From a virus: a DNA stretch of 64,000 bases. The DNA lies in the IMG/VR virus record IMGVR_UViG_3300049847_000198, positions 1 to 64,000 of that record; one strand, 5' to 3'. A model generated the notes under the pieces. That model did no database searches. It saw only the letters and a list, made by a program, of their open reading frames with translations, and was not told the origin of the DNA. Below are positions 1,583-55,774 of this stretch, in pieces (positions within the stretch are counted from its first letter, which is position 1; every line of letters starts with the position of its first letter). The translations under genes and the position numbers were made by a program.

Positions 1583-2509
1583 ATGCCTGACACAGCGTTT
1601 ACGCCTCTCTTCGGGTGGGCCGGAACCAGGGTCGCCGATGAGGCTTGGGAGCAGGTCGGCGTAGAGATGCCGAAGTTTCAGATCGCAGGATCGAGCCAGT
1701 CGTTCGCAGGACAATCTTTTCGTGCTTGGGAATTCGCTAGAAAGGTGTTTGGAAAAGACATTGACCGTGTCGTTCAACTCACTGGTGACTGCGTGAGTCG
1801 TTCCTCAGCAGATGTCTGCGAGTGGATTCAGTGCATCGAGATTGCGAACGGAGACAGGGAATCGTTCAAGCGAATCCTGTGCAGCTACAACTATGCAACG
1901 AGCCGCGTTCTAGTCGGAAAGAATCAGTTGCGAGGCGGTGCTGGGTCAGTCGGTTCTTGGATGGCGAAAGCGATTCAGCAGTACGGTCTTCTTGCGGATG
2001 ATTTTTCTGGAACGCCAGACTACTCTGGAAAACTGTCGGATGCTTGGGGTGACGACAAGCCGTATAACGGAATCAAGTTCAATCAGTTCATCGACGAGGG
2101 TGACAACCATCCAATTCGCACCGTCTCTCGCATCACGAAATGGGATGACCTTAGAGACGCAATCTGCAACGGGCACTTGGCTACAATCAGTAGCAATCGA
2201 GGATACGCATACAAGCCTGACTCTGACGGATTCCATCGACCAAGCGGTTCATGGTCTCATCAAATGGGAATCGTTGCCATCTCGGACAATCCATCGAAGT
2301 CATGGGTCGGTATATCTAATCAGTGGGGCGACATGTTCGGACATTTGAATGACTTTGAGACTGGCGAACCTTGGCCGATTGGTATGCTTCGCGTGCGTCG
2401 AGACGACTTTGAAAAGCACCACTTAACTTCAAGTGCTGAATGCTTTGTTTACAGTTCTTTCGACGGGTTCCCTGATCGTTCATCCGAACTCACAGGCTTG
2501 CTGATATGA
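1583..2509 (+). CDS. papain-like (C1 family) cysteine peptidase
   Basis: Q-x-x-G-D-C (oxyanion Gln, catalytic Cys), WSHQM (His), NQWG (Asn, cf. NSWG). Confidence 0.75.
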   Translation: MPDTAFTPLFGWAGTRVADEAWEQVGVEMPKFQIAGSSQSFAGQSFRAWEFARKVFGKDIDRVVQLTGDCVSRSSADVCEWIQCIEIANGDRESFKRILCSYNYATSRVLVGKNQLRGGAGSVGSWMAKAIQQYGLLADDFSGTPDYSGKLSDAWGDDKPYNGIKFNQFIDEGDNHPIRTVSRITKWDDLRDAICNGHLATISSNRGYAYKPDSDGFHRPSGSWSHQMGIVAISDNPSKSWVGISNQWGDMFGHLNDFETGEPWPIGMLRVRRDDFEKHHLTSSAECFVYSSFDGFPDRSSELTGLLI

Positions 2510-3177
2510 GACGACGCGATTTTCTGAGCACATTCTTGATTGGTAGTTCAGCTTGCTTTGCGCAAGATGGACTACTGATCGACGACCCGAATCCAGCAAA
2601 CGGATTGTTGATGGACGGCCACGAAGTCGGCGACGGTCTATTGATAGACATTCCGAAAGAAGTTTTAGAGTCTCAGAAAAAGATCGTCGTTCATCTCTAC
2701 TCGCCGACGTGGGCTTGCCCGCCATGCGATGTGGCCATCAAGGAATTGAAGGACCATATAGGCATCAAGCTAGTCGTCCATAAGGACGACGAACCACCTG
2801 GATACTTCAAAGGCAAGTCGTTTCCGATTCTGCATTGGGGGGAGGGTGATAAGTGGCAGTCTGGATGGAATGGGAAAGAAAAATTTCTAGCAAAGCTGCT
2901 TGGCGACGATTCTTCTCCACCATCCAAGAAGACGAATCAATCAATTTCGATCAAGGATTCTGGTGGTCATCACTGGTCCGTGAGCGGCGATTGGCAACCG
3001 ACATTACAGAAGACAATCAATCATCTGGTGCATGTGCATGGCTTTCAGCGTGAGCGACTGGCAAACTTGAATCTTGGTCAAGCCTTGACGCTTCACGATG
3101 CTGTGCATGAAGGGCGATTCAGTCGAGCGAAGCATGTTTCTCAGTATCAGCAGAGAACAGAGGATTGCCCAACTTGA
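2506..3177 (+). CDS. Tat-signal thioredoxin-like (CPPC) protein with His-rich C-domain; may read through UGA to 3246
   Basis: MRRRDFL twin-Arg signal; WACPPC; HLVHVH...LHDAVHE; frame stays open after TGA until TAA 3244-3246. Confidence 0.7.
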   Translation: MRRRDFLSTFLIGSSACFAQDGLLIDDPNPANGLLMDGHEVGDGLLIDIPKEVLESQKKIVVHLYSPTWACPPCDVAIKELKDHIGIKLVVHKDDEPPGYFKGKSFPILHWGEGDKWQSGWNGKEKFLAKLLGDDSSPPSKKTNQSISIKDSGGHHWSVSGDWQPTLQKTINHLVHVHGFQRERLANLNLGQALTLHDAVHEGRFSRAKHVSQYQQRTEDCPT

Positions 3178-3249
3178 CCGACAAGCAATAACGGAGCACG
3201 GTCGTACTCCGCGAAACAAAGTTCCTTTCTTTTCTTCAGGTGGTAAATC

Positions 3250-3636
3250 ATGTCAGACATAGATGCCCATGTTGCGAATTGTCTTCAGGCGAAAACGACG
3301 TTTGCAGATCAAAAAGAACTGCAAGTTGCGGGATTCGACTTCATGTCACTGATCGGCATTCTATTGCCGGTATTGACGCAACTGCTTGGCAACTGCTTCA
3401 AGACGCCTACGGCGGAAGAAATCTCGGCGCGGCTGGCGAAAGGCGAAGCCGACCCGAACGTGCGTCAGGCGGCATGGGTTGCTGTCAAAAAGGCGACGCA
3501 GGACAAGCTGCACAACGCGACCAACCTGCGACTTAGCCAAGGTCTCTGCGAGGCTTGCAGGACTGCGACTGACGAGCAACGCATGGAGTTTGTTACCGGC
3601 GTCAAGAACGTCAACGAAGACGGATTGCTGATCTAG
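3250..3636 (+). CDS. hypothetical protein with one hydrophobic segment, ends DGLLI
   Basis: ATG with AGGTGG RBS; last gene of the module before a terminator. Confidence 0.7.
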   Translation: MSDIDAHVANCLQAKTTFADQKELQVAGFDFMSLIGILLPVLTQLLGNCFKTPTAEEISARLAKGEADPNVRQAAWVAVKKATQDKLHNATNLRLSQGLCEACRTATDEQRMEFVTGVKNVNEDGLLI

Positions 3637-3714: not shown

Positions 3715-3744
3715 AACGCCGCAAGGATGCGGCGTTCGGTTTTT
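3715..3744 (+). terminator. rho-independent terminator
   Basis: AACGCCGCA-agga-TGCGGCGTT stem, then a T run; A run upstream, so possibly bidirectional. Confidence 0.65.
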
Positions 3745-3812: not shown

Positions 3813-3935
3813 ATGGCAACAAAGAAGCCGGCAAGACGAAGACCAGCGGCAAGAGCACTAACCGCGCAAGACGCTTTCACCGGCCTGTCTGGCGGATGGA
3901 AGAACTGGTCGCAGTTTGGAATGTCGATACAATGA
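3813..3935 (+). CDS. 40-aa basic peptide resembling the N-terminus of the 4938-5387 protein
   Basis: GGAG RBS; MATKKPARRRPAARALTAQDAFTGLSGGWKNWSQFGMSIQ*. Confidence 0.45.
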   Translation: MATKKPARRRPAARALTAQDAFTGLSGGWKNWSQFGMSIQ

Positions 3936-3942
3936 AACAACC

Positions 3943-4923
3943 ATGCCGTTGAAGCGGCATGGTCTGACCGAAATCGTATCTAGGAAATACGAAATGGCTT
4001 CCACGAAGAATACTCGATGCGTCAAGAAAAATGGTATCTGGGTTGCAAAAGACGGTGCTTACGAGTCTGTTAAAATCCAGGGACTGGTTCAAGCCGGAAA
4101 TCTGTTTTATGTCGCGGAACAAAGATACGCGGTTTGGAGTTGCTGGTGCGGCGAGTTCTTTGTTAGCAATTACCAGAACGTCGCGCGAGGGAAAGTGAAG
4201 TCGTGCGGATGCTACAGAAGAGAGATCGCGAAGATGCTGAACCAAAAGGCGACCAGGAAACTCAGGAAGGCGTCTACCAGCCAGATTAGTCTGGTTGATT
4301 TTGAATCTACCGTTTCAGTTGGCTTGCAGATCGAAGGACGGGAAGTAATTGGCGTCCCGTTTCGCCTGAAATTCAATGGAAGATCGCATAATCATGCCGT
4401 TTGTCTTTGTGTCAAATGCGGACGTTTTGATGTTTGCTCAACGAGTGACATTCAGGACGCGAAGCAATGCCGCGAGTGCTACTTGTCTGAACATACGACG
4501 CATGGCAGAACCGGGCAACGACTTTTCAAAATATGGCAAAAGATGATCGACTGATGCACTCTTGGAGGATTTGGCAGCAAGCGTTACGGCGATCGTGGAA
4601 TATCCGTGTGCAACGAGTGGAAGAAAGACTACGAAGCGTTTCATGCTTGGTCGATGGCTAACGGGTATCAAGACAATCTAACCATCGACAGACAAGACAA
4701 CGATTTTGGTTACAATCCTGAGAATTGCCGCTGGACGACGATGCTCGTTCAGGCGAACAACAAATCGAACAACATTCCGATTGAGGCGTTCGGTGAGACA
4801 AAGAATCTTGCGCAATGGGCAAGAGATACTCGCTGCGTTGTTGGATCGCAGACTATCCAAAATCGAATTGCTGGTGGGCTTCAACCGGAAATTGCAATAT
4901 CGAAGCCTCCTCGATCAAAATGA
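3943..4923 (+). pseudogene. HNH-type homing endonuclease interrupted by an in-frame TGA (4552-4554)
   Basis: ORFs 3916-4554 and 4606-4923 share a frame; joined they read HGRTGQRLFKIWQKMID*C...YGDRGISVCNEW...TIDRQDNDFGYNPENCRW, with the stop where the family has W..M..RC. Confidence 0.8.
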
Positions 4924-55183: not shown

Positions 55184-55774
55184 ACGAACCTACCCGATCA
55201 CCCAATACTTCTCGCCCGTCAGCCAGTTATGAAAGTCTGGCGAACCTGGTCGATAGTGAAGAAACTTGTCGATCTTCTTTTCGAGTCGTGCCGCATCAAC
55301 CGGACGACTGCCTTTGTTCTCGACTTCCGAATACTTCCTGCCGCGAATGAACGCCAACGCGAGTCCCGCGTACCGAGACTCTTCTCGAAGTTCTCGAATG
55401 CGATGAGAGCGAAGCAGTTCGACGTAGATCAGTCCGCATCGCTTTTCTTCCTGACGGATCAGTCGCGACTCCGCAGCAAGCGATTTTGCGTTGATCCTGA
55501 GCCTATGGATCGCGAAGACTCTTTGGTTGTCCCATTCGCCGGGATGCGCGGCGGCGTAAACCAGTCGCCGTTCCTGACGCTTGGTTCGCTGCTTGATCTT
55601 CTTGCGTGCTCCGAACTGCGGATGACAGATGATGGCAGACGGAGCGAGTTGATTGTGGTTCTGGTTTTCGATGGTTGCTGTGGTCATATCGTTTTCCTTG
55701 GAATTGAAACCTGAGATGGAAGAAAGAAACGTACCGTCGAACACTTCAGGAATCACGGCGGACCTCTCGCGTAT

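Follow-up and report, generated by a model that had tools for sequence, protein, structure and literature searches.

A phage thioredoxin-like gene with an in-frame UGA at a conserved cysteine site: a candidate selenoprotein gene of a virus of bacteria

The first 64 kb of an uncultured groundwater phage (IMG/VR record IMGVR_UViG_3300049847_000198, 112,081 bp in all, 52% G+C) contain a thioredoxin-like gene whose reading frame appears to continue through a UGA codon. These 64,000 nucleotides are the stretch of DNA analysed here and are called the window. Up to the UGA, the gene is an open reading frame (ORF) of 223 amino acids on the plus strand (2506..3177) that ends TGC CCA ACT TGA. Read through the UGA, it extends over 2506..3246 on the same strand and has 246 codons, the UGA included. 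The original prediction described a gene that stops at C-P-T-TGA (3175-3177) and a frame that then continues for 22 codons to a TAA at 3244-3246, filling a gap of 72 nt. Re-reading the sequence bears out both statements.

The stop interrupts what would be a CxxU motif, in which U is selenocysteine (Sec). It consists of C-P-T-UGA at 3166..3177 (plus strand), and the UGA at 3175-3177 is followed by C. The tail beyond it, PTSNN...SSFLFFRW and the TAA (3178..3246, plus strand), consists of 22 sense codons. It occupies the 72-nt intergenic gap, and its TAA lies 3 nt ahead of the ATG at 3250. ATG, GTG, and TTG are all absent from the tail. Because it contains no start codon, it can be translated solely by read-through of the UGA.

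Homologous proteins indicate what the UGA stands for. A search with the read-through product retrieves relatives of 235-248 amino acids that align end to end, so that the full-length homologs span 100% of the product. These relatives read ...S-C-P-T-G-x-C-P-T-Q...(G)S-F-L-F-W-R-W-stop. More distant family members, found by an exhaustive profile-free search, end in C-P-x-G-x-C-P or C-P-T-C-P. Since the C-P-T-[UGA]-P-T of the phage aligns with these CPTCP and CPxGxCP motifs, the UGA takes the slot of the second cysteine. The homologs thus carry Cys exactly at the position of the TGA. They also keep the tail through to the same stop, rather than ending at CPT without one, and ...SSFLFFRW-stop is, to judge by the alignment, the normal C-terminus of the family.

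An ortholog, L001, lies on a metagenome contig from Hainich groundwater, which comes from an independent assembly and another sample. It reads ...D-C-P-S-TGA-P-T-S-N..., again with C after the UGA, and continues in frame for 26 codons to Q-F-L-W-W-K-W-TAA. Its tail is homologous to that of the phage, and the tail stop is placed directly ahead of the ribosome-binding site of the next gene. The two genes share 61% protein identity and 58% DNA identity. Their synonymous sites are saturated (pS, the proportion of synonymous differences, is 0.87), while dN, the nonsynonymous divergence, is 0.37. In the conserved codons of the tail the changes are mostly synonymous (CCG/CCT, AGC/AGT, TTT/TTC, CTT/CTC). 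Sequence evolving neutrally would be randomised after so much change. Selection must therefore be maintaining the TGA, frame, and peptide alike, which argues that the UGA is translated. From these comparisons, the tail is under protein-level selection.

One substitution, from TGC or TGT to TGA, would be enough if the TGA were a sequencing error or if a Cys codon had recently mutated and left a pseudogene. However, L001, which was assembled independently from a different sample and shares 58% of its DNA sequence, has the same TGA, and the proteins of four further relatives end at this codon. Selection on the TGA, frame, and peptide excludes sequencing error, recent nonsense mutation, and truncation with a dead tail, and the probability left to an error or a fresh mutation is negligible. 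It is also very improbable that the TGA is a true stop, with a functional protein of 223 residues and an untranslated spacer or regulatory hairpin downstream. Some distant family members do lack any C-terminal Cys motif, as that explanation would allow. Against it, the frame, the PTSN start, the FLxx[R/K]W end, and the position of the stop are all kept at saturated divergence, and they match the tails of the Cys forms.

The TGA is not private to this genome. Besides the phage gene and L001, four further relatives end C-P-x, so that six distinct proteins in all, called stop-forms here, end exactly in C-P-T, C-P-S, or C-P-V. Three of these were added by a profile search that started from three truncated proteins. 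The TGA and the tail were read at the DNA level in the phage and L001; the other four (P0009, P0056, P0057, and P0058) were classed from protein sequence. In a tree, five of the stop-forms make up a clade with support of 99/98, and the hypothesis that all six are monophyletic is not rejected (p-AU 0.5). The TGA forms have 22-26 amino acids after the site, compared with 13-19 in the Cys forms. The longer linkers fit expectation, since the linker would have to house a hairpin.

Such a hairpin begins 14 nt after the UGA. It resembles a selenocysteine insertion sequence (SECIS) and reads CGGAGCAC-GGTC-GTACTCCG (3192..3211, plus strand). The stem has eight positions with one C.A mismatch, and the GGUC apical loop (3200-3203) lies 22 nt after the UGA. 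On re-reading, the predicted hairpin with its G-starting loop is therefore present at the stated distance. Both strands of the genome (224 kb) together hold five hairpins that combine a GGTC tetraloop with 7 or more pairs out of 8 in the stem, and of these only the one at 3192..3211 comes after an in-frame TGA.

The corresponding hairpin of L001, UCGGGGGC-GGUC-GCUUCCGA, has eight pairs and an energy of -11.0 kcal/mol, with its stem 11 nt and its loop 19 nt after the UGA. When the stem columns of the two hairpins are compared, pairing holds in 15 of 16 cells. At four of the eight pairs both bases have changed and still match each other, and the pairing is lost when the partner strand is slid. 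Although the two genes encode poorly conserved peptide across the hairpin, both form the loop with the codons CGG-TCG. L002, the one Cys form with DNA, has no hairpin at the site (-0.9 kcal/mol). The element is thus kept with compensatory changes in the TGA-containing relative and absent from this one Cys form.

Known bacterial SECIS elements offer a standard for the two hairpins. [quoted passage not shown] The L001 hairpin is clearly inside these ranges. That of the phage is marginal, with seven pairs plus the C.A mismatch and a borderline energy. In the E. coli selenoprotein gene fdhF, as read from an annotated genome, UGA-C is followed by 18 nt and then by a GGUC loop. The phage gene and L001 resemble fdhF-type genes in having an in-frame UGA-C where homologs have Cys, and an in-ORF hairpin just 3' of the UGA with the identical GGUC loop, at a spacing of 19-22 nt rather than 18 nt.

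The hairpin also bears on two explanations that do without a dedicated decoder. The first is the true stop with a regulatory hairpin. The minus-strand copy of the hairpin matches a terminator pattern, but no minus-strand genes converge there, and the likely real terminator of the operon lies at 3715-3736. A terminator reading on the plus strand was ruled out, as the hairpin is not followed by a U-tract.

The second is leaky termination, in which a near-cognate host tRNA (for example tRNA-Trp) reads UGA-C and yields a short major and a long minor product, as in the Q-beta coat protein. UGA-C is a weak stop context and is found in both phages, and the conserved tail requires some read-through. 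Leaky termination would leave unexplained why every stop-form has its stop precisely where a CxxC-type motif would have its second Cys, and why a SECIS-like hairpin with the fdhF loop follows it. Moreover, Trp in place of the motif Cys would destroy the pair. This explanation is quite improbable, if slightly less so than a true stop.

The UGA at 3175 is thus very probably decoded as a sense codon. The original prediction, that it is read as Sec or Cys and gives a second CxxC/U pair, gains support from the Cys at the site, the conserved tail, and the recurrence in L001. As for the mechanism, selenocysteine insertion of the SelB/SECIS type is the best supported and has a somewhat better than even chance of being correct. 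In this model, the UGA at 3175-3177 is a sense codon on which the ribosome would pause. The mRNA hairpin 14 nt downstream, with its GGUC loop, would recruit host SelB carrying Sec-tRNA(Sec). Sec would then be inserted and the 22 further codons translated. The product would be a phage selenoprotein of 246 residues with Sec at residue 224, in which C-P-T-U in a flexible tail replaces the CPTCP or CPxGxCP of the cysteine-containing relatives. The SelB and tRNA(Sec) of the phage's host would presumably do the decoding, and possession of selA, selB, selC, and selD by the host is the key requirement of the model.

Several observations weigh against selenocysteine insertion. The phage hairpin has a marginal energy, -7.1 kcal/mol when folded by itself and -8.2 within its surroundings, and a rival fold reaches -8.5. 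Nor is it the structure of lowest energy for 3166-3252 (z = -0.23). On loose rules for bacterial SECIS elements it ranks 14th of 69 among the TGA-ended ORFs of the phage. The covariation comes from two sequences only and is matched by 28 of 500 shuffles. A search of the phage for selA, the wing domain of selB, selD, cysS, and tRNA-Sec found none of them, so that the phage lacks sel genes of its own. A tRNA-Cys-like gene with UCA in its anticodon loop resides in the same genome as the in-frame UGA, which the Sec model does not explain. Finally, a second in-frame TGA, without a SECIS-like hairpin, lies 1.4 kb away in a gene for an HNH endonuclease.

The tRNA gene is the only one in the phage (55111..55184, minus strand) and is of a tRNA-Cys-like kind. 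Its anticodon loop of 8 nt, UUUUCAAC, contains UCA. ARAGORN calls it 'Glu|SeC (ttca)', and it scores 48 bits with the Rfam tRNA model compared with 24 bits with the tRNA-Sec model. Among 50,697 phage records its sole matches are annotated as tRNA-Cys (82% identity over 55 nt). Aligned to that tRNA-Cys, the gene has UCA where GCA stands and one U more on its 5' side. The alignment also suggests an acceptor stem of 8 bp, with one extra pair, and a U discriminator. In an ordinary 7-bp reading the discriminator is A73; the T-stem has 5 bp. Cysteinyl-tRNA synthetase (CysRS) rejects an A73 discriminator, and a U discriminator is its identity base. The tRNA also has a 13:22 mismatch and a variable loop of 4 nt, and it lies directly after the gene 55190..55756. 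E. coli genomes contained no match to it. Among viral contigs, its anticodon arm matched one unrelated hairpin, and the adjoining gene had no relatives.

This tRNA gives rise to the main alternative explanation, in which the host CysRS charges it and it reads the UGA as Cys, restoring CPTCP. Elongation factor Tu (EF-Tu) could deliver the tRNA, in which case the gene would be 'stop-gated' and its full expression would depend on production of the tRNA. Alternatively, SelB could deliver it at the hairpin, a route proposed for the deltaproteobacterial selC* tRNA-Cys(UCA). As the phage's sole tRNA, with tRNA-Cys annotations as its sole matches in the phage database, UCA in the register of GCA, and possibly an 8-bp acceptor stem with a U discriminator, it is a possible decoder for a UGA that occupies a Cys position. 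There is a precedent in tRNA-Cys(UCA) that mimics tRNA-Sec (PMC5389517), and the hairpin-less TGA in the neighbouring HNH gene would be a second target. A Cys-type UCA tRNA beside a UGA that stands for Cys is hard to dismiss as a coincidence.

Other evidence speaks against decoding as Cys. A TGA is one step from TGC or TGT, so a UGA that simply means Cys should not last in six lineages at saturation unless gating itself is selected. Delivery by EF-Tu leaves the conserved, co-varying GGUC hairpin unexplained. The discriminator is A73 in the 7/5 reading, and the phage has no copy of cysS or selB. The 69 TGA stops of the phage are unadapted to read-through, and the examined 8.7 kb of L001 contain no such tRNA. 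The 8-nt loop suggests a frameshift-type decoder, whose UUCA would match UGAA and not the UGAC found here. Reading of a quadruplet, or in the +1 frame, was itself ruled out by the UGAC context and by the conserved tail in the zero frame. Overall, decoding as Cys by the phage tRNA is possible but rather unlikely. This judgement includes the variant in which the phage carries its own mimic of tRNA-Sec (Cys-type, with an 8-bp acceptor, a U discriminator, and UCA) that host SelB delivers to the phage hairpin, which taken separately is a doubtful proposition. If the variant were true, it would provide either a choice between Sec and Cys at one codon or independence from the selenium supply, and would amount to a virus-encoded, site-specific change of the genetic code.

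The selC* tRNA-Cys(UCA) of Deltaproteobacteria and their relatives has an opal anticodon and may use the Sec route to insert Cys at UGA (Mukai et al., NAR 2017, PMC5389517). The phage likewise combines a Cys-like UCA tRNA with an in-frame UGA that aligns with Cys. The selC* tRNAs, however, have an 8/4 structure, U73, and adjacent selB* or cysS*. The phage tRNA is 8/5 or 7/5, has U73 only in the 8-bp reading, has an 8-nt anticodon loop and no selB or cysS, and is borne by a phage. Despite its UCA it does not fall within the selC* type.

The HNH endonuclease gene (3916-4923) is interrupted by one in-frame TGA at 4552-4554, and the HNH profiles of PHROGs span it. In uninterrupted homologs from phages, an M-x-x-R-C motif has its conserved Arg where this TGA stands. 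The codon may have arisen by nonsense mutation from CGA to TGA, the gene being a mobile one, or it may be read by the UCA tRNA. Together with the TGA at 3175-3177 it makes up the two in-frame TGAs found within the window.

The genome as a whole uses the standard code. Under code 11, the standard bacterial code, coding density across the whole phage is 90.5%, and TGA ends more ORFs than either other stop (69 of 157), so the genome is not recoded as a whole. The 69 TGA stops lack a back-up-stop signature and hence any adaptation to read-through. Eight read-through candidates for further TGA-split genes were compared with PHROGs, and none spans its TGA. The marks of a genome-wide code in which TGA is sense, namely many TGA-interrupted genes and better models under an alternative code, were not found. 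In this respect the phage differs from stop-recoded phages. It resembles these and the large standard-code phages with orphan suppressor tRNAs in having a tRNA capable of reading a stop and a few in-frame stops.

The protein may have a redox function. It begins with a Tat-like (twin-arginine translocation) signal peptide (2506..2565, plus strand), which has MRRRDFLS, a hydrophobic stretch, and a probable A-x-A-like cleavage site, CFA|QD, and which is conserved in relatives. The Tat-signal models of Pfam and NCBIfam do not match the recoded protein; from its N-terminal sequence, the product is probably Tat-exported. Tat-exported periplasmic selenoproteins exist, for example formate dehydrogenase-N. 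The CPPC motif of the thioredoxin-like domain (2716..2727, plus strand) comprises residues 71-74, and C71 and C74 are invariant in the homolog alignment A1. In the AlphaFold2 (AF2) model, residues 50-135 form a confident thioredoxin-like domain with CPPC just ahead of helix 72-82. A helical domain at 165-202 carries four invariant histidines, and the chain is disordered from residue 206. Foldseek places thioredoxins first but weakly (E about 5e-3, TM about 0.5), and Protein Atlas, queried with the 223-residue form, gave thioredoxin-type leads. Pfam, PHROGs, NCBIfam, and PDB sequences gave no match to the recoded protein. A flexible C-terminal arm with CxxU may act as a redox or metal-binding partner of the thioredoxin-like or the histidine-rich domain. 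The N-terminal redox pair is not kept everywhere: the stop-form P0058 has W-P-P-C, with Trp where the thioredoxin-like CxxC has its first Cys.

Sec and Cys near the flexible C-terminus of a redox protein are also found in mammalian thioredoxin reductase (GCUG) and in the bacterial 'CU/UXX-star' families (PMC13188914). The phage protein differs from those in its CxxU spacing, in its conserved aromatic tail of 22 residues, and in showing no sequence relationship to them. Unlike bacterial genes of the SelB/SECIS type, the gene is carried by a phage, which lacks sel genes, and it belongs to an uncharacterised protein family. Its Sec would also be 23 residues from the C-terminus, in a tail that is modelled as disordered.

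A review of recoding names just two viral selenoproteins, both from poxviruses: the glutathione peroxidases of molluscum contagiosum virus and fowlpox virus (PMC8310308). As proposed here for the phage, these are virus genes that rely on the Sec machinery of the host. The poxvirus cases are captured host genes with a eukaryotic SECIS of the 3'-untranslated-region type, whereas here the element is of the bacterial in-ORF type and the family is phage-specific. A literature search found no selenoprotein reported for any virus of bacteria, and a 2026 review of prokaryotic selenoproteomes makes no mention of phages or viruses (PMC13188914).

If selenocysteine insertion is correct, phages would exploit and depend on the SelB/tRNA-Sec system of their hosts, and such genes would flag hosts that use selenium. 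Databases systematically shorten genes of this kind, and all six stop-forms are stored as proteins ending C-P-x. With a Cys-type UCA tRNA in the same genome, it can be tested directly which of Sec and Cys is chosen at a single codon.

Searches for further relatives extended to other contigs. A scan of viral contigs found no close relative of the recoded gene, and scans of genome contigs found no relatives of it and yielded no lead to a host. In the viral contigs, a DNA pattern for C-P-x-TGA-P-T-S-N gave eight matches, all due to chance. The sole match there to a profile of the stop-forms was a distant Cys form on the IMG/VR contig L020 (1820-3306), which has CPGGVCP...GLFGGLFR-stop and no thioredoxin-like domain. 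Directly upstream of it is a protein similar in size to the protease-like gene upstream of the recoded gene in the phage. This arrangement may point to a conserved module of two genes.

Three metagenome relatives, P0012, P0013, and P0060, have the same N-terminal signal with DGLLID and the same GSFLFW[R/H]W end. Between these ends they have something else, either a methyltransferase domain or a segment rich in Cys and His, so that the two ends behave as portable modules.

In the phage, the mature part of the recoded protein begins with DGLLID repeats. The two ORFs that flank the gene end G-L-L-I-stop (2495-2509 and 3622-3636) and are the only ones in the genome to do so. The orthologs of both flanking genes in L001 and L002 have the same ending. 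The recurrence of GLLI/DGLLID suggests an address or processing motif that the proteins of the module share. The hairpin at 3715-3736 (plus strand), 3' of the gene 3250..3636, is strong, terminator-like, and followed by a U-tract. The recoded gene belongs to a module of five genes, which this hairpin probably terminates.

One candidate for a tRNA-Sec was rejected. A 94-nt match to the tRNA-Sec model (20 bits) at genome positions 69329-69422, or L004:1501-1594 (minus strand), has an 'anticodon' loop of 6 nt without UCA and is unusable as a tRNA-Sec. The fold has a canonical T-loop, a D-stem of 5 bp, a long variable arm, and a weak acceptor stem. It is intergenic and lies beyond the window, just upstream of a ParB-like gene.

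Tyrosine and serine integrases were looked for in the phage and not found. The last 100 nt of the record are identical to nt 30-129, within a 6-nt tandem repeat (GGCTAC-type) found at both contig ends, so the ends overlap. Although classed as linear and 79% complete, the record probably represents a genome that is closed or has terminal redundancy.

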